DNA of 11,900 nt, taken from assembly GCA_019058015.1 (NCBI GenBank), contig JAHLWH010000050.1:1-11900 (forward strand), given 5' to 3'. Both the position numbers and the translations under genes were made by a program. How positions within the stretch are numbered: position 1 is the first letter of the stretch; each line of letters opens with the position of its first letter. Below, piece after piece: positions 1 through 11,900 of the stretch. Under the pieces are notes generated by a model. The model saw only the letters and a list, made by a program, of their open reading frames with translations. It searched no databases and had not been told where the DNA came from. This DNA comes from Promethearchaeota archaeon (lineage in GTDB: Archaea; Asgardarchaeota; Lokiarchaeia; Sigyniarchaeales; SOKP01).

Positions 1-1372
1 CTTCAAAACTATCAAAATTAAAATCTAAAAAATGAATCCTGGGCCTTTTACTGAGTGGAATGATAGTCTGATTGCTGTATTTGTTAATTAAGAGATTTTC
101 GATCGTAGTTAATATTTTTTCTGTGTTTATTATATGAGTAAATATAGAAAATCGCAGAAAAGCAAGATAGATTCCCCCAAATTGACCATGCCAATAACAG
201 TCGTTGCATTGACTTTTATAAACCTCGTCCCAAGCATTCGATAATAATTCTTGAAGTTTTTGATCTTGATTCCCCAATTTTGTTATTTTATTTTCGATGA
301 TTTTTAATTTATTACGAATGTAAAGCATTTTTTTATGCATTGTATTCGATTCAGGGTATTTTACTAAGAAATATCGCCAGAATCCACCTTTAATAAACCT
401 TTCAATTTTTGAATCGATAATACGATTTTCAATTTTTTCTTTAATTTTTTTAAATTGAATCCTCTGCTTAGTAGGAAGCACCCACTCCTCCATTTTGTCA
501 TAAGATGATGTGGGAATATATATTAAACCTTTAGAGTTGTAATTTTCAATATATTCTGATAAAGTAAGGGTTTTAATCCAATCATTATCTAAAATTGTGT
601 CAAACAAAGCTGGAATAAATGGCTTTTTGTCGTCCCCATCATAATGCCCTTTAATATAACAAATCTCATGTGTGGTCCCCCATACACCCATCTTTTCGGC
701 ATCACTTAAAAGGACAACTATTCGGTCACCATTTTCATCTGCGGATTTTTTTAAATAATCAATCGTCATAAAAGTAGGTTTCCAAGGAGTTAAATATCTA
801 ATTTTTTCGTTAATAGGAAAAATTGTTAGAATGTCGCCTCCATCTTCGGTCGTGTAGGAATAAAGTGTATCTCCTTCTTCAAGACCGCAGGATTTGAGGT
901 GGTTATCATCAACTAAGATATACTTTAATCCAACCTTACTTATAAAAGATGGATAGTCAGGTTCCCACACCCTTTCGCTCAACCATGCTCCATTGACCTT
1001 TAATCCAAATTCATCTATTATGCGTTTGCTTAATTTATTCATTTGAGCTATTTTATCCTCATCAGGAATTATTGCATATATCGGTTCATAATAACCGCCA
1101 CCAATTATTTCAATTTGCTCTCTTTTTGACATTTTCTTCAATTTTTCCACAATTTCTGGCTCATTATCACAGAACCAATCTAGGAGATTTCCTGAAAAAT
1201 GGAGTGTAAACTTTATTTCTGGAAAATCGAACATTTGATCAATCAATGGTTCATATGCTTTTTTATAGCAATCTTCAATAACCCAATTAAAATTATCTAC
1301 GGGTTGATGGAAATGAAATACGAGAGGAAAATTGATTGATTTCCCTTTTATATCAGATTTTTGTTCAGTCAT
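1..1372 (-). CDS. GH57 family 4-alpha-glucanotransferase/alpha-amylase (3' end runs off the window)
   Basis: Manual translation from ATG at 1372 (in-frame TAG two codons upstream): MTEQKSDIKGKSINFPLVFHFHQPVDNF...LHFSG...GGGYYEPI...GAWLSERVWEP...LLSDAEKMGVW...SQCNDCYWHGQFGGIY, open to the window edge (457 codons). The GH57 conserved regions HxHQP, WLxERVW (nucleophile Glu), xDxEKxG (acid/base Asp) and QCNDxYWHG match the Thermococcus glucanotransferase/Dictyoglomus AmyA type. Confidence 0.95.
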   Translation of the reverse strand, partial: MTEQKSDIKGKSINFPLVFHFHQPVDNFNWVIEDCYKKAYEPLIDQMFDFPEIKFTLHFSGNLLDWFCDNEPEIVEKLKKMSKREQIEIIGGGYYEPIYAIIPDEDKIAQMNKLSKRIIDEFGLKVNGAWLSERVWEPDYPSFISKVGLKYILVDDNHLKSCGLEEGDTLYSYTTEDGGDILTIFPINEKIRYLTPWKPTFMTIDYLKKSADENGDRIVVLLSDAEKMGVWGTTHEICYIKGHYDGDDKKPFIPALFDTILDNDWIKTLTLSEYIENYNSKGLIYIPTSSYDKMEEWVLPTKQRIQFKKIKEKIENRIIDSKIERFIKGGFWRYFLVKYPESNTMHKKMLYIRNKLKIIENKITKLGNQDQKLQELLSNAWDEVYKSQCNDCYWHGQFGGIYLAFLRFSIFTHIINTEKILTTIENLLINKYSNQTIIPLSKRPRIHFLDFNFDSFE

Positions 1373-1525
1373 GGTCTAGATTCCTTCATTTATATACAAA
1401 TTAAAAAATCGAATATAATATTCAATTAATTTAAATATAGAATATAAATTTTAAAAAATGAAGTAAAATTCTAAAATATAACTTATCAATTCCTTTTAGA
1501 TTAGAGAAAAAAATACGTTAAGAGC

Positions 1526-3208
1526 GTGTTATTAAATATTAGTAAAGAAATTGTTTTAGAAATTATCAATACAAATGAATTTAAACATTGGTTGAAAAAC
1601 AGAAGATGGTTTGGAGAAAAAAATTTACCGGATTTTGATATAAAATTAAATTCTATTTTTATTGTTCCAAATGAATTTATAACTCCACATGACTGTGCAA
1701 TTATATTCACTGTTATCAATATAGATTCCAATAAAGAAAGAAATTATTTTCTTCCATTATGTATTATAAAATCTTTCGATTCACTCAATGAGGAGAGTAA
1801 TACCTTAAAATTAATTAAGCAGAAATGTTTAATATTAGATTTGAGTGAGAAAACAAAAGAGTTAATACTTTTTGAAGCTGAATTTTTTCCAGATTTTTGG
1901 AAGACTTTGTTTTCAAATTTTAATAAATTGGCAGAGATAAATTGCGAAATATTTTCTGAAAAATTTAAAAATCTCTTATTAGATGATTTTCAAGTTCAAA
2001 TAAAAGAATTAGATGATGCAAAGACTACAAATATTGTTTTAAAATTGGAGATTGATAAACCAAATGATAAAAATAACACTGGAAGTTTAAATCAGTTGGT
2101 AGTAAAATCATACAGAAAATATACTCCACATATTGAAGTAGAAATGCTTAAAACTCTTAATAATAACAGCTTTAATGCGTCTCCTAATATGCTGGGTTTA
2201 ATTAGTTTTAAAGAATATAATGTTCTTAATTTTATGAATTTTATAGAGAATGAAGGAGATGTTGGTCTTATTTATTGGAATGAATTGAATGATCTTTTTG
2301 ATTTTTACTTAAATAATCCTGACGAATTAAATGAAATTAATTTTGTGAAAAATACAAACCTATTAGAATTAAAATTAAAAGATTATTGTAAAAATTCAAT
2401 ACAATTTGGTGAAAAACTTGGAAATTTTCTCAAGCATATGCATCAGTGCCTTATCAACAACGAATCGAATGAATTTAGTTTAGAAAAAATAGATCAGGAA
2501 ACAGAAACTTTAATATTAAATCAATTTAAAAGTCTTTTATCTGATATAATAAACGGTTTAAATTTTAGTAAAGAATTAGAAATTATTAAAAACGAAGAAA
2601 TCATTGCGAGTTTAATAAACATATCCTCAATAATGGACAATAAAGATTATTTTTTAAAAATAAAAGATGTTAAAACACAAAGAATTCATCAAGATTTACA
2701 CATGGCCCAAATTTTAATTAGCAAGTTGGAAGGAAACTCGGAATTTATTATTACTGATTTTGAGGGAGATCCTCAATTATCTATTATGGACCAAAAAAGG
2801 AAATATCCAATTGAAAAAGATCTCGCCTCCCTTCTCAGATCACTTGATTATATTAAACTTCTCTCCCTAATTGGTGTAATAAAATATTATATAAAAGAAA
2901 CCTCTGATGAGATATCTAAAAAAATTTTATTATCTTTATACAAAGAACAGAAGCCGACAGCATTATTGGAAAAAGATTATATTTTTCTTAAAAATCTTGT
3001 AAAGATTGGGGATTTCTGGCAATCTCATATATCCAATTTAATCTCTATTGCATATTATAATTCCGAAGAAATATTTCAAATGAAAAAATTCCTTATAAAT
3101 TTCTTTTCAATTCAACGATGTTTGATGGAACTTAATTACGAAATAAACTTTAGACCAGAAAATATCATGATCCCATTCTTAGGGTTAAAAAGAACCTTGC
3201 TAAAGTAA
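1526..3208 (+). CDS. Maltokinase (Mak/Pep2)-like kinase, aminoglycoside phosphotransferase fold
   Basis: N-terminal WLKNRRWFGEK cap motif, VVKSYRK (ATP-binding Lys), QRIHQDLHMAQIL, ITDFEGDP, KDLASLLRSLDY and ELNYEINFRPE all match Mak/TreS-Mak motifs. GTG start; an in-frame TAG at 1502-1504 limits upstream extension. Confidence 0.85.
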   Translation: MLLNISKEIVLEIINTNEFKHWLKNRRWFGEKNLPDFDIKLNSIFIVPNEFITPHDCAIIFTVINIDSNKERNYFLPLCIIKSFDSLNEESNTLKLIKQKCLILDLSEKTKELILFEAEFFPDFWKTLFSNFNKLAEINCEIFSEKFKNLLLDDFQVQIKELDDAKTTNIVLKLEIDKPNDKNNTGSLNQLVVKSYRKYTPHIEVEMLKTLNNNSFNASPNMLGLISFKEYNVLNFMNFIENEGDVGLIYWNELNDLFDFYLNNPDELNEINFVKNTNLLELKLKDYCKNSIQFGEKLGNFLKHMHQCLINNESNEFSLEKIDQETETLILNQFKSLLSDIINGLNFSKELEIIKNEEIIASLINISSIMDNKDYFLKIKDVKTQRIHQDLHMAQILISKLEGNSEFIITDFEGDPQLSIMDQKRKYPIEKDLASLLRSLDYIKLLSLIGVIKYYIKETSDEISKKILLSLYKEQKPTALLEKDYIFLKNLVKIGDFWQSHISNLISIAYYNSEEIFQMKKFLINFFSIQRCLMELNYEINFRPENIMIPFLGLKRTLLK

Positions 3209-3246
3209 TTCTGATAATTTTAATAAATAAATTATATATAGTTTAT

Positions 3247-4635
3247 TTAATCTAATTTTTCTGCTATATATGGTTTCAAAGAATTTATTGCGATTGCGTA
3301 AAGAGGAATTACGGATAATTCAATAAATATTGAAATTATGAAAGGTGCTTTTGGACCTAAACTATCCCAGGCTAATCCACCTAAAATAGGGCCCAAAATA
3401 GCACCTAATAAACTTAACCACTGAGCTGCTCCAAAAATTTTTCCACGATGAATTTTTGATATCCGACTGAGAACATTTTGTAAAACTAAATTACCACCCC
3501 AGGCAAAAGTCGAATCAAATAGTAATATCATACCAAACGTTAATCCAGATGTAGAATTAATTATTAACCACGTCATTAATGCACCTAATCCACTCACGAC
3601 AGCAATTCCTAATATTGGATTTACTTTATCAGCAATTTTCCCTATTTTAGGAGCAAATAATAGAGATAATACTTGACTAGGAAAATAAATTAACATTACA
3701 AGTGTAGGGTTCTCAATTTTTAACTCTTGTATCAAATAGACTTGAAAAAATGGATATGCTAAGTCTGAATTCATACTACTTACCATAAAAGCAATACTTA
3801 ATACAAAAAAACCGATAAAAAACCCAATTGTTATATTATTCCTTGATTTAAAAAGAGAATCTTGTATCACAGGCTCATGATAAATAAGGGATGGTTCGAC
3901 TGAAGATGGAAATATATTGACAACATGCTTTTCATATGTAAGTTGCTCATCAACTTTAAGATGAAAAATTATCCCTCCAAAAATATTAGATGCAGCAAAT
4001 AATAATAGTGGACAGTAGACTAAAAAAAGATTTTCAGGAGTAAAGAAATTTGCTAAACCAAAGATAGTAAAACTAATAATTGATCCAATGAGGTTTCCTT
4101 TTCCTATCATTGCAGCTCTTTTACCAAATGCAAAAGAACGATTATCTTTATTTGATTTTTCGGAAATTAATGTATCTAATGGTGTCCAAAAAAATCCAAC
4201 AAAAAATCCCAAAACAAACATCCCAATAGCAAAGATCGATAAAGAAGAAAATAAAATTCCCACATACATTAATACATAGCATGCAGCACGCCCAATACTC
4301 CCTATTAGCACCAAAACCTTTTTTGAAATACGATCAGTTAAATAACCAATAATCGGAGCACTAATTAACCCACCCATTATTTGTATTGAAAATGTAAGAC
4401 CTAATTGTATACCTGAAGCTCCAAGTAATTGCACTGTTATATATGGTATCAAAAATGAAAAAAAGAAAAATCCCAAACCATTCCAAAAAATAATTCGAAT
4501 CATAGGAACAAAATCTGGAGTAATCTTTACCTGGATTTTATCTTCTTGAGGATTACCTCCAGAATTAATTCGTTTTGTCTCTTTTGATATATGTTTAGAA
4601 TTAGAATGATTTTTATTATCAATATTATAGGACAT
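3247..4635 (-). CDS. MFS transporter
   Basis: 462 aa with about 12 hydrophobic segments in two halves, MFS motif A in both halves (GYLTDRISKK; GKIADKVNP) and a hydrophilic central loop. Confidence 0.93.
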   Translation of the reverse strand: MSYNIDNKNHSNSKHISKETKRINSGGNPQEDKIQVKITPDFVPMIRIIFWNGLGFFFFSFLIPYITVQLLGASGIQLGLTFSIQIMGGLISAPIIGYLTDRISKKVLVLIGSIGRAACYVLMYVGILFSSLSIFAIGMFVLGFFVGFFWTPLDTLISEKSNKDNRSFAFGKRAAMIGKGNLIGSIISFTIFGLANFFTPENLFLVYCPLLLFAASNIFGGIIFHLKVDEQLTYEKHVVNIFPSSVEPSLIYHEPVIQDSLFKSRNNITIGFFIGFFVLSIAFMVSSMNSDLAYPFFQVYLIQELKIENPTLVMLIYFPSQVLSLLFAPKIGKIADKVNPILGIAVVSGLGALMTWLIINSTSGLTFGMILLFDSTFAWGGNLVLQNVLSRISKIHRGKIFGAAQWLSLLGAILGPILGGLAWDSLGPKAPFIISIFIELSVIPLYAIAINSLKPYIAEKLD

Positions 4636-4923
4636 TTAAAAAAGCTTCCCCTAAGACTATTATTTCTAATAAAGAGGCTTTTCCTAAAAAGTTCATTATT
4701 TAATTCATAACCGAAATTCATAGAATAAATGGAAACAACATAATTTTGAGCAAAAAAGCATACTAATTAAAAATGCCAAAGATTATTCAATTAAAATTAG
4801 CTTGTTAAAACGTATTAATCGAACTCATTTTTTAGGAATGAAAAAAGTCAAAAGCCCCTTTATTTATTGCAGCCAATCTAAGTTTATTGAGAGCTTTATA
4901 CCTAAAAGAAGCATTATTTGTAC

Positions 4924-5514
4924 CTATTCTTCTCTCAAATGCATAAATGTAAAGGTATAATAACCACTTGGAGCGTTTTCACCTTTGCCAAAAACTCTCT
5001 CATATTCTTTTTTTATCTTATCAGACGAGATGTTTTCGCTTAAAAATCGCATCGGCATCTTTTTTTCATTCACTAAACGATAACAAAATGATTTTACAAA
5101 ATTTTCAGGTCCAAATTCATGAGGTATCTGAATATTTCTATTACTGTCAAGAATTAGTAAGAACCAACCTAATCTATTACATAATTTTAATTTGTATTCT
5201 AAACTGAAATCTCCCTTAATTCTGCATATATCATTCACATATAAAGCCATATCATCACCGAGATCCATTTGAGATTTTTCATCCAATTTTGATAATATAT
5301 TTCGAATAGTCTCCTGCTTTAAGACCATTAAAGATCGATTATTATACCCCCGTATCGTTCCATCATTATGTATTGCTAAGATTTCAGCTAAATTCAGGAA
5401 ATTTCTTATAACACTACCCTTCTTATCATTTAGTATTTTTTCAGCAATAAATTTTAGTTGTTCTTCCAAATCAGAACTAATTCTAACTGTTATTGGCTTT
5501 TTTTCTGAACTCAT
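4924..5514 (-). CDS. Putative regulator: N-terminal ribbon-helix-helix domain plus C-terminal domain (possibly V4R-like)
   Basis: KKPITVRISSDLEEQLKFIAEK...KKGSVIRNFL fits the RHH (CopG/Arc/MetJ) pattern of an alternating beta strand followed by two helices. The C-terminal domain call is tentative. Confidence 0.65.
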   Translation of the reverse strand: MSSEKKPITVRISSDLEEQLKFIAEKILNDKKGSVIRNFLNLAEILAIHNDGTIRGYNNRSLMVLKQETIRNILSKLDEKSQMDLGDDMALYVNDICRIKGDFSLEYKLKLCNRLGWFLLILDSNRNIQIPHEFGPENFVKSFCYRLVNEKKMPMRFLSENISSDKIKKEYERVFGKGENAPSGYYTFTFMHLREE

Positions 5515-5538
5515 AATTTTTTTAATATGAATTTATAC

Positions 5539-5552
5539 ATATATACTTTTGT
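5539..5552 (-). promoter_or_regulatory. Candidate archaeal BRE/TATA for the RHH gene
   Basis: The minus strand reads acaaaagTATATATG about 25 nt upstream of the ATG at 5514, the spacing expected for a leaderless archaeal transcript. The AT-rich background lowers confidence. Confidence 0.4.
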
Positions 5553-5804
5553 AGAGATCATACACATAAAATTACAAAGTCTTCAAAAAGAATTTTAAGA
5601 TATAGCAAAAAATGATAATTTAAAATGAAATTCATATTATATTTATACCTAAAAATTTCCCATTTTTGTGGAAAATGATAATCATTAATTTAGATATTAT
5701 AATTTGAAAAAAAAAATTCCCCAAAAAAGTATCTATTTGAATAAGAAATTATTTATAAAAATATGTAGTCTTTTAGAATTTCTTTTATTAAAATGATGAC
5801 AATC

Positions 5805-5822
5805 GTTACATTTGTTACATTT
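5805..5822. repeat. Tandem direct repeat 2 x GTTACATTT
   Basis: gttacattt gttacattt at 5805-5813 and 5814-5822, in the intergenic region between the two regulators. Confidence 0.7.
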
Positions 5823-5829
5823 GATGCGA

Positions 5830-5846
5830 CGAAAAACCTTTAAATC
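5830..5846 (+). promoter_or_regulatory. Candidate archaeal BRE/TATA for the ArsR-type gene
   Basis: cgaaaaaccTTTAAATc: a purine-rich BRE-like run followed by a TTTAAA box, about 65 nt upstream of the ATG at 5912. Confidence 0.45.
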
Positions 5847-5911
5847 TTAAGAGAATATTAATTTGATTGTAATACAAATAGTAAATTTTGATATAGGGTT
5901 AAAATTATAAA

Positions 5912-6250
5912 ATGGAATTTACAGAAACCGTATCTTTTAAAGAAATCCCGGATAGTATTGAGCAAGATCTTAGAATAGATGATGATGAAAAAATAGAATT
6001 AATTTCAAAAGCTCTATCGAGTCTGACAAGACGAGAAATTATACGCCTTATTAGAAATCAATCAATAACTGGTGAGTTAATTGATGTGTCATCAATTGCG
6101 GACATTTTAAATATGACAGAAGCAAATATTTCCGCGCAGATAAAACGACTTGAGAAGGCAGGATTGATTCGATGTCTTTATATGCCTGGGCAGCATGGTG
6201 TAAAGAAAATTTCTCAAATGACATATAAAAAAATCATTTTTAGTATCTAG
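5912..6250 (+). CDS. ArsR/SmtB-type winged-helix transcriptional regulator
   Basis: KALSSLTRREIIRLI...IADILNMTEANISAQIKRLEKAGLI...PGQHGVKKIS is a typical ArsR-type wHTH. Confidence 0.9.
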   Translation: MEFTETVSFKEIPDSIEQDLRIDDDEKIELISKALSSLTRREIIRLIRNQSITGELIDVSSIADILNMTEANISAQIKRLEKAGLIRCLYMPGQHGVKKISQMTYKKIIFSI

Positions 6251-6393
6251 TCTTATTAATCTTTCAATTCAGGGGAAAAATTGTTAAATACTGTTCTTTC
6301 TCTAATTTAATAACTGTTCTAAATTTAATTTGATTTTTTATTTTACGGCAGATATTTTTAATGTAATTAATAGTTCACTATTAATTTTATGTT

Positions 6394-7074
6394 CTATGGG
6401 GTTTTAGAGTATCTAGCTTTCATATCTTCGAGTGAAATTCGTCTTGTTCCTGACTTTATGAATTTTAAATTGTAAATTAATTCAATGAAATTTACAATCA
6501 TATGAGAAGTCGCTCCAAATATTACATATTTGTTGTTATTTGTTTTATAAACATATTTACCGACAGCAATAGTGTCACCCCTTAGGTTATATGTTCTCTC
6601 AATATAATTTTTTTTATTAACAAAGAAGGAGATCGGAATTTTAATGATTTCTTCCACTTCATCATCGCATTTAATCATTTTCTGCTGTTTATCTGTATAT
6701 CCTACAAAAGGAGTAATTAGATGTCCTTTAGGTGTAACAACATCATCAATGCATCCAATTATTTGGATTTTATCTCTTGAAATGCCCAATTCTTCTTCAG
6801 TCTCTCTTAACGCTGTATCTTTATATGTATCATCTAATTGAGGATTATACAAACCTCCCGGAAACGACATTTCTCCTGAATATTTATCATTTGATCTATG
6901 AGTTCGTTGAATTAAAACTAAATTATAAGGTTTATTATCATTTGGAATAATTAAAAATAATACCGCTGAACTTATCAAGCAGTTATCTCTAAAGGAAATT
7001 CTTAAAGGCGAATTAAATTTTTTTAACTTACTTCTAAATAAATCTTCATTGAAGAATAAATTCATAAACTCCAT
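6394..7074 (-). CDS. Nudix hydrolase, CoA pyrophosphatase (NudL/Pcd1/NUDT7-like)
   Basis: SAVLFLI, NuCoA-like motif LIQRTHRSNDKYSGEMSFPGG, Nudix box TALRETEEELGI, ITPFVG, EVEEIIKIPI and C-terminal IFGAT. Confidence 0.9.
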   Translation of the reverse strand: MEFMNLFFNEDLFRSKLKKFNSPLRISFRDNCLISSAVLFLIIPNDNKPYNLVLIQRTHRSNDKYSGEMSFPGGLYNPQLDDTYKDTALRETEEELGISRDKIQIIGCIDDVVTPKGHLITPFVGYTDKQQKMIKCDDEVEEIIKIPISFFVNKKNYIERTYNLRGDTIAVGKYVYKTNNNKYVIFGATSHMIVNFIELIYNLKFIKSGTRRISLEDMKARYSKTP

Positions 7075-7085
7075 AATTCTACTTC

Positions 7086-7130
7086 AAAAGACTTGAATTT
7101 CTTAATATAATTTAGATTAAAAAGACTTGA
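7086..7130. repeat. Direct repeat 2 x AAAAGACTTGA upstream of the Nudix gene
   Basis: Copies at 7086-7096 and 7120-7130 (34 bp period). Confidence 0.6.
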
Positions 7131-7151
7131 GTCTATAAAAAATTAGCCTTT

Positions 7152-8354
7152 TTATTCTTCTTCCTCAAATTTCAACTCTTTTCCGCAGCTTTTACATCTT
7201 GAATCTATTAATTTTTCAAAACATTTTGTGTGGTATAATGCATTACATTTGTAATTGCCACATTTGATTATATCTTGTTCCTCCTCAAATATCATATTAC
7301 AAATTCGACATGAACCATAAAGTGCTTCATCACCTAACTCTGAAGTAGATGTCCTTATTGCATAAAAAACATCACTTGTTTCAGATTTGGAAAACAGACT
7401 AGGTTTTCTTAATGCTTGCAGTTTTGTAATTTGCTGAACCTCTACTGGAATTTTTAAAAGATAGAAACAATGAGGACAACGAAAAGTTCCTGAAGCTTTT
7501 AGTTTATCATCTGATAAACTTGCCGCGTAAGCCGTGGCACAGTGGAGGTGCATTGGAATATGACAATCGGGACAATATCTCCCCTCTGTAAAGAATGTTC
7601 CCCCACAATATGGACATATATCAGAAAAACAAATAGAGCATTTTTTATAATCAACCTCTCCGCGAATTTGTTTTATCCGTTCTTTTTGGTTTTTAGTTAA
7701 ATCCTGTGTTCTTAAGAGAGAGGCAGCAATTTTACGTAAGAAAGCTGGATTTTCAATAGCTGACTTGATATCTATTGTATCAATTCTTACATTTGATGTA
7801 GCAACTACTCTAGCTGAATTAAGCATACTCTCAGAATCATTATTATAAAAGTATTGTCCTTTAGTGACCTCTGACAATCTTTTTAATATATTAAAATGAG
7901 TTAATTCACCCAATCTTATTGTATCTATTATTATTTTTAACTTACTTGCTAAATTAGCCATCTTTAAAGGATCAATTGACGTCTTTGTATAATTTCCATC
8001 AGAAATTATTAAAATTCGTGGCACTTTAGCACTGATTTTTCTTAGTTCACCTATTTGTTTTTGGATTCCGAGAGCGAGAGTATCCCCCAGAGTGGATCTT
8101 CCTCCAAATTCCAGATTGTTTAAATTTTTAATTATTATTTCTTTGTTGCTATTGAAATCCAAAACGAGTTTAGGACTATCAGATATCGTTATAACCGCAA
8201 AAGAAGTTGATGGATCTTTTTGAAGCCTTGTAGAAACGAGGACTTGTAGAGCCTTTATACAAGATTCTAATCTATTTGGTATATAATCCTTTCTATACAT
8301 TGAACGACTAACATCAAAACATATAATAATATTTTCAGAGACTCGTTGGCTCAT
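7152..8354 (-). CDS. vWA domain protein with two C-terminal C4HC3 RING-like zinc fingers (p44/Ssl1- or Rpn10-like vWA)
   Basis: vWA at aa ~7-185 with MIDAS DVSRS...T...ISDG and DYIPNRL. Finger 1: C239,C242,(C247,C250),C261,C264,H269,C272,C293,C296. Finger 2: C349,C352,C365,C370,H375,C378,C387,C390. Confidence 0.88.
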   Translation of the reverse strand: MSQRVSENIIICFDVSRSMYRKDYIPNRLESCIKALQVLVSTRLQKDPSTSFAVITISDSPKLVLDFNSNKEIIIKNLNNLEFGGRSTLGDTLALGIQKQIGELRKISAKVPRILIISDGNYTKTSIDPLKMANLASKLKIIIDTIRLGELTHFNILKRLSEVTKGQYFYNNDSESMLNSARVVATSNVRIDTIDIKSAIENPAFLRKIAASLLRTQDLTKNQKERIKQIRGEVDYKKCSICFSDICPYCGGTFFTEGRYCPDCHIPMHLHCATAYAASLSDDKLKASGTFRCPHCFYLLKIPVEVQQITKLQALRKPSLFSKSETSDVFYAIRTSTSELGDEALYGSCRICNMIFEEEQDIIKCGNYKCNALYHTKCFEKLIDSRCKSCGKELKFEEEE

Positions 8355-8734
8355 TTTAATTTTAGAAGAAATATTTTTAAATATTTATAAAATATTTTAA
8401 TGAACTTAGAGGAAATTAATCCTTTCAAGTTGTATTTATGAATATAATAGAAATTAAGTCTTATAAAAACTTTTATAAAAAGGGACAAATAAAACGCAGA
8501 TTGCAAGAAAATACTTAAGGTTCAATTCTACTCAATATATTCATTTTTTCTATAAATTCGAAATGAAATAAATTTTGTAATTGGTGTAAATAAATAGATA
8601 AAAATAAAAGTGTTTTTGATGATTTTTTTTATGATATTTATGCAAATAATTAATATAATTTATGAATAAATAATATTATTAATATATTAATTTAATTTGA
8701 TTTTAAAATTAAACAAATAAAATGAATTTAGAAT

Positions 8735-9946
8735 ATGCAAATATCAGGAAAAAATGACATTGAAAAAATAAAGGGCTTTTTCAAATCAAGCATTCTCATT
8801 GATGATATTATGGAAATCCTAAAATATAAAGTGGATTCTCTAATTGGAATTGATACAATTAGTGCAAATATTCTCAAGAAATCGGGAGTGAATACAATTA
8901 AAGATCTGGCAGAATTAACTGATGATAGAATTCTTGAAAATAAAGAAATTCCCGCAGATATTTTAGAAAAGTGGATAAGTATTGCAAAAGTAATCCAGGA
9001 ATTCATAAGTTCAAGCAGATTTGCGCAGAAAAAAGTTTTATTGATAGGATTGGATAATGGTGGAAAGACTTCGATTTTAAATGTAATTCAAGATAAATAT
9101 TCTATGGTTAAAAATATTCTGCCTACAAGAGGAGTACAAAGAGAACAATTGGATTTTTTTGGTTTTGGAGTAGTATCGTGGGATTTAGGTGGCCAGATCC
9201 AGTATCGGGAGAATTTATATTTTAAAAGACCTGAATTATATTTTTCTGAAGCGGATTTAATTTTATACGTAGTTGACGTTCAAGATCCTAAGAGATTCGT
9301 AGAGTCCGCAAATTATCTAAAAATTGTTCTTCAAGTACTCGAGGATTTAAACGAGAAACCTGAGTTATTAATTGTTCTAAATAAATTTGATCCTGATTTG
9401 AAAAATGATAAAACAACTTTAGCTAATGCTGAATCTGCAAAAACCAAATTTAAGAATATGGGAAAAGACTATGGTGTTGAATCTCTTGATTTTGTGAATA
9501 CTACGATTTTCGAAAGTTTTACCATTAAACAAATGTTTTCAGTTGCTTTGAAAAAGATTTCCGAGACATCAGAGATTATTGAAAAGATTTTATCTCGATT
9601 TTCAGATTCGATTAATGGAAGAGCTATTTCTATTATTTCTACGGATGGACTTATTTTTGGTAGTTTTGCTGAAAGTGAAGCAGACGAAACATTAATTAAC
9701 AATACTGCTTTGTTGATGCAGACTTTATTGAGTTTTCATTCAAAAGTTGGATTATTAAGAGAAAATTCGATGGTGCTCGAATATCGGTTAAATAAATTCT
9801 CTATTCGGGGTGAAAAATTATTTGAGTATAGCGATAAAAAGATTCCGGTTTATCTTTGGTTGTTGAGTGAAGATGTATCACTCTTAGATGAAAAATTAAA
9901 TTACTTCACCACAGAAATTATGCCTTTGATAAATCTTTTTGTTTAA
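8735..9946 (+). CDS. Small GTPase (Arf/Rag-like) with N-terminal HhH/DUF4332-like domain and C-terminal roadblock-like domain
   Basis: G1 GLDNGGKTS (aa 105-113), G2 PT, G3 WDLGGQ, G4 NKFD, G5-like TTIF. N-terminal LIGIDTISANILKKSGVNTIKDLA...EKWI. C-terminal GRAISIISTDGLIFGS is typical of roadblock/LC7. Confidence 0.9.
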   Translation: MQISGKNDIEKIKGFFKSSILIDDIMEILKYKVDSLIGIDTISANILKKSGVNTIKDLAELTDDRILENKEIPADILEKWISIAKVIQEFISSSRFAQKKVLLIGLDNGGKTSILNVIQDKYSMVKNILPTRGVQREQLDFFGFGVVSWDLGGQIQYRENLYFKRPELYFSEADLILYVVDVQDPKRFVESANYLKIVLQVLEDLNEKPELLIVLNKFDPDLKNDKTTLANAESAKTKFKNMGKDYGVESLDFVNTTIFESFTIKQMFSVALKKISETSEIIEKILSRFSDSINGRAISIISTDGLIFGSFAESEADETLINNTALLMQTLLSFHSKVGLLRENSMVLEYRLNKFSIRGEKLFEYSDKKIPVYLWLLSEDVSLLDEKLNYFTTEIMPLINLFV

Positions 9947-10075
9947 CTCTTAAATCTTTTATCTCCTCTTTCTTATTTTTAAAATAGGTTAATTCGAAAC
10001 AAAAATCTTCAGAGTAATTCTTAAATCCCTATATGATGTTTAAAAAAATAAAAAAAGTTTGGTAATTTAAAATAT

Positions 10076-10585
10076 TTATTTTTTTCTTCCCACAAAAAAC
10101 GAGCCAACTAATGCAATTGCAGCTCCCGCACATGCAATGAAGAAACCATTACCTAATCGCCAAGTCCATGTTCCAAAAAAATCAAAAGTACCAAAAAATA
10201 TATTGTAATCACCTCCAAAGAGGAATTCTAAACCAGCAAGTATAGATTCAAAGTGTTCTTCAACATAGAGTGCATAACAGAATAGCGCTAATCCTACAAT
10301 CATTAAAAATGCGCATAAAAGTGATCCTGCTTTTGATCCTTTTGCAGCAGCTAAAATTACTAAAACAGAACTGGCAACAAACAGGAGGCCCCCGATTAAA
10401 AACAATTCTCCTGCAAAATCTCCATTTACATTATATCCATATGGATTTAGATAAGCTTCATTTGTACCTATACCTATATAAGTGACTTCCCACCATCCTA
10501 GAGATGGTTCAATAAAGGTTAAGATGGCAGCGATTATACCAATAATTCCACCTATTATTGCTAAAATTTTAGTCAAATTTCTCAC
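10076..10585 (-). CDS. Hypothetical 4-TM membrane protein (claudin/PMP-22-like topology)
   Basis: 169 aa, GTG start, four hydrophobic helices (aa ~7-26, 61-81, 87-107, 147-165), two long loops and basic termini. Confidence 0.8.
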   Translation of the reverse strand: MRNLTKILAIIGGIIGIIAAILTFIEPSLGWWEVTYIGIGTNEAYLNPYGYNVNGDFAGELFLIGGLLFVASSVLVILAAAKGSKAGSLLCAFLMIVGLALFCYALYVEEHFESILAGLEFLFGGDYNIFFGTFDFFGTWTWRLGNGFFIACAGAAIALVGSFFVGRKK

Positions 10586-10810
10586 TCATTAATTGAATAA
10601 TTTATTTCAGTATTACATTAGAAGTTTTAATTACTGTTTTATTATTACTTAAAAAATTTAACCATAATTTATAAATTAAAATAATGTAGGATTGATTTTT
10701 TAATAATTATTCAAAAATTTTTTCTTTTATCTTTTTTTTATTATAAATAACCATAAAAGGATGCTTAGCATATCTTATTTAAAATAAGTTTTGTATAAAT
10801 TTCGCAAAAA

Positions 10811-11665
10811 GTGCAAGAGAAAATGGAACAAAAAAGTGAAGAAAAAAAAGGACTTACTAATGAGCAAAGAATGGAATTAATAAAATCAAACATGGAGAAG
10901 ATAAGACACAAAATAGCGATAATTTCAGGCAAGGGTGGAGTTGGCAAAAGCACAGTTGCAGTGAATTTAGCTATGAAACTAGCAAGCACAGGTTCTGCTG
11001 TAGGGTTGCTTGATATTGATATCACTGGACCAAATGTAGCGAAAATGATTGGGATTAGTCCTGAATTGAAACCACAAATAGATCCAGATAAAATGCAATT
11101 TTATCCAATCAATGGACCTCTTAACATTAAAGTCATGAGCATGGCATTTTTAATTGAGGATAGTGATAGTCCGGTCATTTGGCGTGGTCCAATGAAAATG
11201 AGCGCAACAAGGCAATTTCTTGGGGATGCACAATGGGGTTATTTGGATTATTTAATAATTGATTTACCACCCGGCACGGGAGATGAGATTTTAGATATAT
11301 TACAACTGATACTTGATGTCCATATCGTTATAGTTACAACACCTCAAGAAGTAGCACTGATGGATTCTAGAAAAACCATTAAGATGTCTCTTATCATGAA
11401 TAGAGATGTAATAGGAATTATAGAAAATATGTCAGGATATATTTGCCCTGAGTGTGGCTACAAAGTTGATTTATTTGGGAAAGGAGGCGGAGAAAAAGCG
11501 GCAAAAGATTTTAACGTACCTCTTTTGGGTCAAATTCCCCTAGATCCAAATATTAGAGTTACTGGTGACTCAGGGTTGCCATTTATAATTCAATATCCAG
11601 ATTCTCCAGCCGCAAAAGCTTTTACAGAATCTGTAAAAAAAATTAAGGAAATCTTAGAAAAATGA
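10811..11665 (+). CDS. mrp: Mrp/NBP35 (ApbC) Fe-S cluster carrier ATPase
   Basis: SGKGGVGKST, LLDIDITGPN, PVIWRGP, DYLIIDLPPGTGDE, VTTPQEVA, GIIENMSGYICPEC. The true start may be the ATG at 10823. Confidence 0.97.
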   Translation: MQEKMEQKSEEKKGLTNEQRMELIKSNMEKIRHKIAIISGKGGVGKSTVAVNLAMKLASTGSAVGLLDIDITGPNVAKMIGISPELKPQIDPDKMQFYPINGPLNIKVMSMAFLIEDSDSPVIWRGPMKMSATRQFLGDAQWGYLDYLIIDLPPGTGDEILDILQLILDVHIVIVTTPQEVALMDSRKTIKMSLIMNRDVIGIIENMSGYICPECGYKVDLFGKGGGEKAAKDFNVPLLGQIPLDPNIRVTGDSGLPFIIQYPDSPAAKAFTESVKKIKEILEK

Positions 11666-11729
11666 TTTTATCTTTTTTTTTAATACTCTTTTGAAAATAA
11701 TCTAGTTAAAATAAAAAAAAAGAATAAGA
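11666..11729. terminator. Probable bidirectional oligo-T terminator region between convergent mrp and cdhA
   Basis: T9 run at 11673-11681 on + just after the mrp TGA, and A9 run at 11713-11721 (T9 on -) just after the cdhA TAA. Archaeal terminators are oligo-U tracts. Confidence 0.5.
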
Positions 11730-11738
11730 AATGTAAAT

Positions 11739-11900
11739 TTATTTTACATATATTTTTGATAATCTTTCTACGATTGTAGGATCGATGATTTCTCTTGGCT
11801 CCCATTTCTTGGATTTAAGATATTCCAGGACTTCTGTTTTCATACTGATTGGAATATCAGCTTCAACTCGAACATATTTCTCTAATTCTTCTGGAAGATC
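11739..11900 (-). CDS. cdhA: CO dehydrogenase/acetyl-CoA synthase complex alpha subunit, C-terminal 53 aa (partial)
   Basis: Manual translation: DLPEELEKYVRVEADIPISMKTEVLEYLKSKKWEPREIIDPTIVERLSKIYVK*. This matches the recalled archaeal CdhA C-terminus pattern P..L..(F/Y)VR.EAD(I/L)P...K..(I/V)...L....W.P....DPT..ERL. Confidence 0.8.
   Translation of the reverse strand, partial: DLPEELEKYVRVEADIPISMKTEVLEYLKSKKWEPREIIDPTIVERLSKIYVK

Follow-up and report, generated by a model that had tools for sequence, protein, structure and literature searches.

Asgard archaea encode, to our knowledge, dozens of Rag-, Arf- and Rab-like GTPases of unknown role. The Rag-like members with a fused roadblock or longin domain are well described (PMC10933270; bioRxiv 10.1101/2020.10.19.343400), and two Lokiarchaeal Rag-like GTPases that appear among our Foldseek matches have solved structures. 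As stated in a structural survey of MK-D1, a cultured strain, its GTPase genes generally share no operon with genes for roadblock, longin or TRAPPC3 proteins, which makes it difficult to predict their partners from the genomic layout (PMC10933270). The other described system of relevance is the prokaryotic ubiquitin-like operon with an E1, an E2, a JAB and a RING protein, of which the Caldiarchaeum example is mentioned in PMC4453063. The locus described here, from a Promethearchaeota archaeon (assembly GCA_019058015.1, contig JAHLWH010000050.1, positions 1 to 11,900 of the forward strand), holds a Rag-type GTPase gene and, head to head with it, the gene of a vWA protein that carries two zinc modules of the RING/PHD type, hereafter vWA-RING. 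The window, meaning the whole stretch that was analysed, is an entire 11.9-kb contig (G000:C39) of a genome of about 3.8 Mb that is 94% complete. The pair is an exception to the rule of unpredictable partners: one Rag-type GTPase with one neighbour that is conserved across an order and whose family has ties to ubiquitin operons. Its parts are of known kinds, and the conserved pairing of the GTPase with vWA-RING appears to be new. The words 'vWA', 'RING' and 'ubiquitin' do not occur in PMC10933270, nor 'vWA', 'von Willebrand' or 'RING' in the main text of bioRxiv 10.1101/2020.10.19.343400, whose supplements may list these families. A literature search returned no paper joining Asgard, vWA and RING with GTPase or ubiquitin, supplements and a 2011 survey of prokaryotic RING fingers lying outside that search.

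The initial annotation of the window had proposed a eukaryote-like signalling module composed of the vWA-RING gene, the GTPase gene and a tetraspan membrane protein gene. Its description of the layout holds exactly in the open reading frame list: the vWA-RING and GTPase genes diverge from a spacer of 380 nucleotides (nt), and the membrane protein gene converges on the GTPase gene. The features of the pair are as follows.

7152..8354, minus strand: vWA-RING gene, encoding a 400-residue vWA protein with two zinc modules, of the GTPase-linked subfamily (open reading frame list)
7785..8354, minus strand: vWA domain, about residues 1-190, with a MIDAS-like DxSxS motif (alignment, profile, VIA)
7452..7649, minus strand: first zinc module, about residues 236-301, C-x2-C...C-x2-C-x4-H-x2-C...C-x2-C followed by a mostly conserved W
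7164..7319, minus strand: second zinc module, about residues 346-397, RING/PHD-like (alignment and Prok-RING_1)
8355..8734: shared spacer, 380 nt, A+T-rich, between the two divergent genes, presumably with both promoters
8735..9946, plus strand: Rag-type GTPase gene, 403 residues (open reading frame list)
8735..9019, plus strand: N-terminal helical domain of the GTPase, residues 1-95, with a putative helix-hairpin-helix-like motif (model, sub-threshold Pfam matches)
9023..9574, plus strand: G domain, about residues 97-280 (invariant motif residues)
9575..9943, plus strand: predicted C-terminal roadblock-like domain, about residues 281-403 (predicted model and Foldseek)

In the alignments of 29 vWA-RING and 30 GTPase orthologues the N-termini are kept from residue 1, so that both start codons and the length of the spacer stand.

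The arrangement was compared in 40 related genomes by way of the best match to each of the two proteins per genome, and the genes are adjacent and divergent in 29 of them (21 in family f1, seven in f2 and one in f3). A gap of 2.7 kb with an inserted leucine-rich-repeat (LRR) gene is found in G009. In G030 both genes are on the same strand, separated by 2.1 kb that contain a proteasome alpha-subunit gene and a TPR gene, and its congener G034 is consistent with this layout, its contig being cut at its end; four further genomes (G006, G010, G036 and G037) are not scorable, the genes lying at contig ends or on short contigs. A scan of species representatives, in which 80 loci were kept out of 136 confirmed by tblastn, recovered the divergent pair in 73, and in the other seven the contig ends less than 500 nt upstream of the vWA-RING gene; these loci were drawn from the same collection as the 40 relatives, and the two counts are therefore not independent. 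Across the three families that keep the pair, protein identity ranges from 31 to 56%. As a control, seven f2 and f3 loci with long flanks were inspected, and the eight further window genes are all missing from the surrounding 6 kb; at 31-43% identity the pair is the only window adjacency that survives, and all others are lost outside the genus or family. The head-to-head arrangement is thus conserved far beyond chance, and the pair is a genuine two-gene module of one order of Promethearchaeia (Lokiarchaeia-type Asgard archaea), inherited since before the divergence of three families of that order. The linkage that the initial annotation wished to see in related genomes is clearly found within the order and is missing in the other orders, where the genes are unlinked.

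vWA-RING itself is cytosolic and combines a vWA domain, which bears a MIDAS-like site, with two eight-ligand zinc modules of the RING/PHD type; databases name it only 'VWA domain-containing protein' or 'YegL'. The mean column identity of its 29 aligned orthologues is 54%. Residues 8-180 match the Pfam models VWA_2 (50.7 bits), VWA (47.0 bits) and Ssl1 (PF04056; 31.4 bits against a cut-off of 27), and the MIDAS-like set consists of D14, S16 and D119, which do not vary among the orthologues, and of S18, with a conservation of at least 90%. All eight ligands of the first zinc module (C239, C242, C261, C264, H269, C272, C293 and C296) are invariant in 29/29 sequences, and Pfam finds a weak zf-RING-like match there at residues 254-280. 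The second module has seven invariant ligands (C349, C352, C365, C370, H375, C387 and C390) and either C or H at position 378. This module is matched by Prok-RING_1 at residues 348-381; the score is 27.3 bits over the whole protein and 30.3 bits in a scan restricted to the last 65 residues, the cut-off being 29.1. Counted at E<=0.01 across the orthologues, Prok-RING_1 matches 29/29, Ssl1 28/29 and zf-RING_2 24/29, and no TFIIH C1-like family is among the Pfam matches of any of the 29 members. A Protein Atlas look-up of the RING region gave no usable match. Longer relatives of 608-717 residues, with the vWA domain and the first zinc module, occur in other orders (L156-L160); one of them (L157:649-2475) also has a C-terminal PCI match of 23.8 bits against a cut-off of 22, a combination of vWA and PCI that is reminiscent of proteasome-lid or COP9 parts.

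An AlphaFold model of vWA-RING (pLDDT 81.9) was compared by Foldseek, in which TFIIH p44/Ssl1 is best among the 50 matches listed (E 2e-17, about 400 columns), and by VIA, which gives p44/Ssl1 Z-scores of 25-26.5 with 244-251 residues aligned across residues 1-392 of the model. The vWA domain alone reaches Z of about 25 against the vWA domains of Ssl1 and p44, with a root-mean-square deviation (rmsd) of 1.9-2.0 over 180-184 residues (for the Ssl1 vWA 4wfq, Z 25.5, rmsd 1.9 and 182 residues); the full-length p44 scores are tied with these vWA-only matches, and the likeness to p44 beyond the vWA domain is therefore weak. Rpn10 reaches Z 22-23 with rmsd 2.3-2.4. When the profile is compared with sequences of solved structures in the PDB, the Rpn10 vWA is the best match (E 1e-17, positions 6-164) and p44 is matched at E 5e-13 in the vWA domain only (positions 9-179). 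The vWA domain thus most resembles those of p44/Ssl1 and Rpn10, eukaryotic vWA domains of ubiquitin- or RING-linked proteins. The initial annotation had instead drawn analogies to GATOR1/GATOR2 and to Sec23/24, and these find no support: p44/Ssl1 and Rpn10 are the closest solved vWA relatives among the matches listed, and Sec23, Sec24 and DEPDC5 are absent from the 50 matches listed by Foldseek and by VIA, which is not an exclusion. An archaeal vWA complex titled as an orthologue of the Sec23/24 core motif (8s05) is matched by VIA at Z 22.6, no better than a generic vWA.

The description of the GTPase as Rag-like is borne out by sequence and by the predicted fold. Its best Pfam models score alike, with 78.4 bits for Arf and 77.4 bits for Gtr1_RagA (PF04670; residues 100-316, cut-off 22 bits), and Gtr1_RagA is matched in all 30 orthologues. 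Invariant among these are the P-loop residues G105, G110, K111 and S113, the switch I residue T131, the motif D150-x-G-G-Q154 and K217-x-D219, the residue before K217 being N, S, H or T. A predicted model (pLDDT 80.9) has three parts, namely a helical N-domain (helices at 5-15, 25-30, 41-49, 55-59, 63-68 and 74-92), the G domain and a C-terminal domain at residues 277-402 with the order alpha-beta-beta-alpha-beta-beta-beta-alpha. Foldseek ranks 8yl2, a 'RagA-like small GTPase from Asgard Lokiarchaeota', at the top (E 2e-17), followed by RagA/RagC and Gtr1/Gtr2 at E of about 1e-13, and its alignments span the G domain and the roadblock, with 299-324 columns against RagA, RagC, Gtr1 and 8yl2 chains of 272-310 residues; phmmer matches 8yl2 over residues 92-395 at E 5e-39. 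Since the G domain and the roadblock align with 8yl2, RagA/C and Gtr1/2, the protein is modelled as a Rag-type paralogue with an extra N-domain: a helix-hairpin-helix (HhH)-like N-domain, an intact G domain and a C-terminal roadblock. The Pfam matches of the N-domain are all sub-threshold (RNA_pol_A_CTD 21.1 bits, HHH_5 19.8, DUF4332 15.0), HHH_5 is matched in two of the 30 orthologues, and a Protein Atlas look-up of this domain gave no usable match. It is specific to the linked orthologue group and some relatives from other orders. In the alignments of both families all zinc ligands, MIDAS residues and GTPase catalytic motifs are intact.

Two gene trees and the wider distribution of the family delimit the module. 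A quick maximum-likelihood search unites the GTPase-linked vWA-RING proteins of f1, f2 and f3 in a single clade of 18 rows with a support of 99 in the Shimodaira-Hasegawa-like approximate likelihood ratio test (SH-aLRT), and the f4 proteins form a separate clade whose placement is unsettled in this tree. A FastTree analysis of the GTPases, made with archaeal sequences only and with several long-branch joins flagged among the paralogues, likewise gathers the linked GTPases in one clade (13 rows, local support 92) with those of f4 as sister (joint support 97), and the HhH-bearing GTPases of other orders group apart from it. That the pair might be general to Loki-, Hel-, Thor- and Heimdall-type lineages is contradicted by a phylum-wide sample, in which 0/103 genomes outside the order match the vWA-RING profile at E<=1e-25. 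Within the class, 100 of 101 genomes match the profile, six of the seven from other orders among them, and most have two full-length vWA-RING paralogues. The vWA-RING proteins of other orders are not found beside a GTPase of the linked type.

The ubiquitin connection emerges from these other orders. The second vWA-RING paralogue of the window's genome (contig C101) groups with proteins of about 395 residues from other orders (SH-aLRT 94), and in the five loci of this sister subfamily a JAB gene is nearby in four, a ThiF gene in three and a UQ_con gene in two. The gene order in L142 is ThiF (E1), UQ_con (E2), JAB, a second ThiF and vWA-RING; in L144 and L145 it is JAB, ThiF and vWA-RING; in L143 a JAB gene is adjacent, and L141 has none of the three. 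The residence of the sister subfamily in E1-E2-JAB operons makes a link to ubiquitin plausible. In the window's own genome the ThiF E1 and UQ_con E2 genes are on contig C195 and a ubiquitin-like protein is encoded on C40, all three away from both vWA-RING genes. The window's vWA-RING subfamily has left the ubiquitin operon and is paired with the GTPase instead, and of the ubiquitin-ligase module that was initially put forward the ubiquitin link is plausible by way of the sister subfamily, while ubiquitin genes beside the pair are lacking in this order. As to the composition of the L142 cluster (L142:1-6173), the E1 has 409 residues, the E2 172 and the JAB protein 472 with a long coiled C-terminus; the second ThiF, of 275 residues, is on the opposite strand and is followed by the vWA protein of about 395 residues with its two RING modules. 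In L142 and L145 an open reading frame of 126 codons and an Arf/Roc-type GTPase gene for 525-618 residues lie two to three genes further on.

The synteny, the matching linked clades in both trees, the ubiquitin operons of the sister subfamily, the fold and the invariant residues are the grounds on which we regard a functional partnership, in which a GTPase switch is coupled to an E3-like vWA-RING partner, as an evenly balanced proposition. The two proteins would then work together. By analogy with the Rags, the GTPase would be a nucleotide-dependent switch that probably dimerises via its roadblock domain. vWA-RING would act as its E3-like partner, a ligase role that is plausible for this protein: the vWA/MIDAS face may hold the GTPase or a client specified by the GTPase, and the RING modules may recruit the E2~ubiquitin of the cell. 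The outcome would be ubiquitylation either of the GTPase itself or of a target, in the latter case gated by the GTP state of the GTPase. A stronger and tentative version, which we consider somewhat doubtful, has the Rag-type GTPase directly gate a dedicated, active ubiquitin ligase; here GTP-dependent binding to the vWA/MIDAS face would switch on or aim the two RING modules, and the nucleotide state would be written into ubiquitin marks that possibly feed the proteasome.

Several observations weigh against a ligase partnered with the GTPase. The closest relatives of both genes in family f4 (four genomes of the same order) are unlinked: the single contig of G033 has them 187 kb apart, and G027, G029 and G031 have them on separate contigs. 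Neither vWA-RING paralogue of this order is near E1, E2 or JAB genes, and in L142 a further Cys-rich RING-like open reading frame, cut by the start of the locus, lies upstream of the E1, so that vWA-RING need not be the ligase of that operon. The ligand order of both zinc modules is C4HC3, as in PHD or RING-variant fingers, and the whole-protein score for Prok-RING_1 is below the Pfam cut-off. The zinc modules of p44/Ssl1 are largely scaffolds in TFIIH. A fused GTPase/vWA-RING protein was not found, the search for longer forms having given one vWA protein of 717 residues without a GTPase domain, which is weak evidence of absence. In three f1 genomes (G160, G177 and G209) neither orthologue was found, the best matches scoring about 200 bits against about 600 for orthologues; the genes being adjacent, a single assembly gap could explain their joint absence, which carries little weight.

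Four other accounts of the pair were weighed. It is possible, if unlikely, that vWA-RING serves the GTPase without catalysis, as regulator, effector or scaffold, and transfers no ubiquitin, its vWA domain and zinc modules being only protein-binding surfaces, as in p44 with XPD and p34 or in the vWA/zinc-finger coats with Sar1. The best full-length structural matches to p44/Ssl1 in Foldseek and VIA, the 8s05 match and the lack of E1, E2 or JAB genes near the pair in this order would all suit such a role, but the tie between full-length and vWA-only Z-scores leaves little likeness to p44 outside the vWA domain, RING-family Pfam models match most members, and the sister subfamily is embedded in E1-E2-JAB operons. 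A more specialised form of the comparison, in which vWA-RING would be the archaeal counterpart of p44/Ssl1 on DNA repair or transcription helicases and the HhH-bearing GTPase its nucleic-acid-associated partner, is highly improbable in our estimation. It could draw on the Ssl1 Pfam match in 28 members, the top rank of p44/Ssl1 among the structural matches listed, the weak HhH-like matches in the N-domain of the GTPase and the two full-length paralogues that most genomes of the class carry, loosely like p44 and p34. However, the p44 sequence match is confined to the vWA domain (profile positions 9-179), no TFIIH C1-like zinc domain is matched in Pfam, the HhH matches are all below their cut-offs, and no helicase gene was seen among the neighbours examined, no genome-wide search for XPD having been made.

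The two remaining accounts concern the arrangement rather than the proteins. The genes may share a regulatory region and serve the same process while their products never touch, with the arrangement kept for co-regulation; adjacency is indeed the sole direct evidence of linkage, the spacer is short and retained, and f4 functions with its relatives unlinked. We judge this to be quite improbable, given that both gene trees define the same linked clade, that the arrangement outlives all other local gene order and that in G003, G008 and G013 the far side of the GTPase gene is occupied by another, divergent vWA-like gene. Historical inertia without functional meaning deserves very little credence: all genomes are related and the counts overstate their independence, yet at the same divergence each of the other eight window genes has left the 6-kb vicinity while the pair persists down to 31-43% identity. 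A functional partnership between the GTPase switch and an E3-like vWA-RING protein stays our preferred reading.

The spacer at 8355-8734 lies within a stretch of about 22% G+C, and its counterparts in other genomes measure 42-384 nt by start-codon calls, mostly 150-390 nt. Folding of both strands gave z-scores of -1.3 and -0.2, hence no sign of a structured RNA, and an Rfam search of the whole window (E<=1) returned a single match at chance level, located in the vWA gene and scoring 23.8 bits where the gathering score is 41.5. Shared 10-mers occur in up to 33 of 85 distinct spacers, against a maximum of ten after shuffling; the loci are closely related and nothing is concluded from this sharing. 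The left part of the spacer (window 8355-8530, about 180 nt) is missing in the congener G003, and it is nearly identical in G001, G002 and G004, where it is conserved at least as well as the flanking coding sequence. The insertion in G009 (L028:6026-8104) encodes a 692-residue LRR protein and is the sole spacer insertion among the loci read.

The third gene of the initially proposed module converges on the GTPase gene from the right.

10076..10585, minus strand: four-helix membrane protein gene, 169 residues (open reading frame list)

Its product has no Pfam or NCBIfam family and four hydrophobic 19-residue segments, at about 1-32, 57-85, 83-110 and 144-167. Homologues are present in 25 of 41 genomes, beside the GTPase gene in G001, G003 and G004 only and otherwise on other contigs. 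It is a real gene and a genus-level neighbour, and it lies outside the conserved module to which it had been assigned. The same holds for the NUDIX gene downstream of vWA-RING, a genus-specific neighbour outside the module. A gene for a 384-residue TPR/SNAP-like protein (L025:9639-10793 and equivalents) was considered as a third member, being at most three genes from vWA-RING in 24 of 30 loci from three families; with one query it has no match in G000, G003 and G004 and a weak one in G001 (E 5e-4), and since it is not found in the window's genus it was dropped from the module. It is joined by a proteasome alpha-subunit gene (L043:10294-11016) in family f2 only (6/30 loci).

Further genes recur around the locus. 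The second vWA-like gene of G003, G008 and G013 (L023:3297-4652, L027:8622-9923 and L031:41-775) is very divergent, scores about 130 with the vWA-RING profile and has a long branch of its own; the GTPase gene is in these genomes flanked by vWA genes on both sides. In family f4 (L055-L059) the unlinked vWA-RING relative is downstream of an FtsX/MacB-like permease gene and a BatD/TRAP-beta-like gene, and the unlinked GTPase relative has a different divergent neighbour, of about 300 residues and without an assigned family, in two of three loci. Past the position of the window's right end, congeners (L021:13119-14778, L024:44-898) carry a CO-dehydrogenase/prismane-type gene, a gene for a 173-residue V4R-domain protein and one for a 320-residue GTPase whose N-terminus is extended and whose C-terminal part is an Arf domain. 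This set is on contig C226 of the window's genome, at about 21.7-29.9 kb, and recurs in about 9-14 of 30 loci; in other f1 genera it is followed by a gene of about 380 codons without an assigned family. Within the window, another divergent pair at 4924-6250 consists of genes for a 196-residue protein without a family match and an ArsR-type regulator, which lie within 6 kb of the vWA-RING gene across f1 (in 13 and 15 of 30 loci). At 2-3208 a GH57 glycoside hydrolase gene, cut by the contig end, is head to head with a gene for a 560-residue protein that matches the putative maltokinase domain TIGR02457 at E 4e-35, below its cut-off, and the two may be an alpha-glucan metabolism pair.

Asgard archaea have many small GTPases, and for one of them the pair points to a likely partner from the ubiquitin system. 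The pair could reveal what an archaeal Rag-like switch controls and whether the coupling of GTPases to ubiquitin predates eukaryotes. If the GTPase does gate the ligase, the module would prefigure, in a prokaryote, the cross-talk between GTPases and ubiquitin that surrounds Rag and Arf in eukaryotes, and for the first time both the partner and the output of an Asgard small GTPase would be identified.

Eukaryotic cells provide several couplings of a comparable kind: TRIM23 is a RING-Arf fusion, RagA is ubiquitylated by RING E3s, and Sec23/24 pair with Sar1. In each of them, and by analogy in the present locus, a small GTPase of the Arf or Rag kind is tied to a RING or vWA/zinc-finger protein. 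Like Rag/Gtr and the Lokiarchaeal RagA-like 8yl2 (also 8zla/9m28), the window GTPase is predicted to have a G domain followed by a C-terminal roadblock, and with Rag/Gtr it shares D-x-G-G-Q, in which the Q is invariant, and the relaxed motif [NHST]-K-x-D. It differs from both in the extra 95-residue HhH-like N-domain and in that the Arf Pfam model scores as high. Its identity to 8yl2 is about 30%, which marks it as a separate paralogue. Genes of the Ragulator, GATOR or FLCN type do not adjoin it, its conserved neighbour being vWA-RING. The latter resembles TFIIH p44 (GTF2H2) and its yeast counterpart Ssl1, which is reported to have E3 activity, in that an N-terminal vWA domain precedes zinc modules within a chain of about 400 residues. 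In contrast to p44/Ssl1, however, its zinc modules are two C4HC3 units, no TFIIH C1-like domain is detected, and its genomic partner is a GTPase and not a helicase. Rpn10/PSMD4, the ubiquitin receptor of the 26S proteasome, supplies the best sequence match among solved structures for the vWA profile, but unlike vWA-RING it has no RING modules. The sister subfamily of vWA-RING sits, in other orders of the class, in an operon of the prokaryotic ubiquitin-like type; whereas those operons have one small RING protein, the protein of the window combines a vWA domain with two zinc modules.

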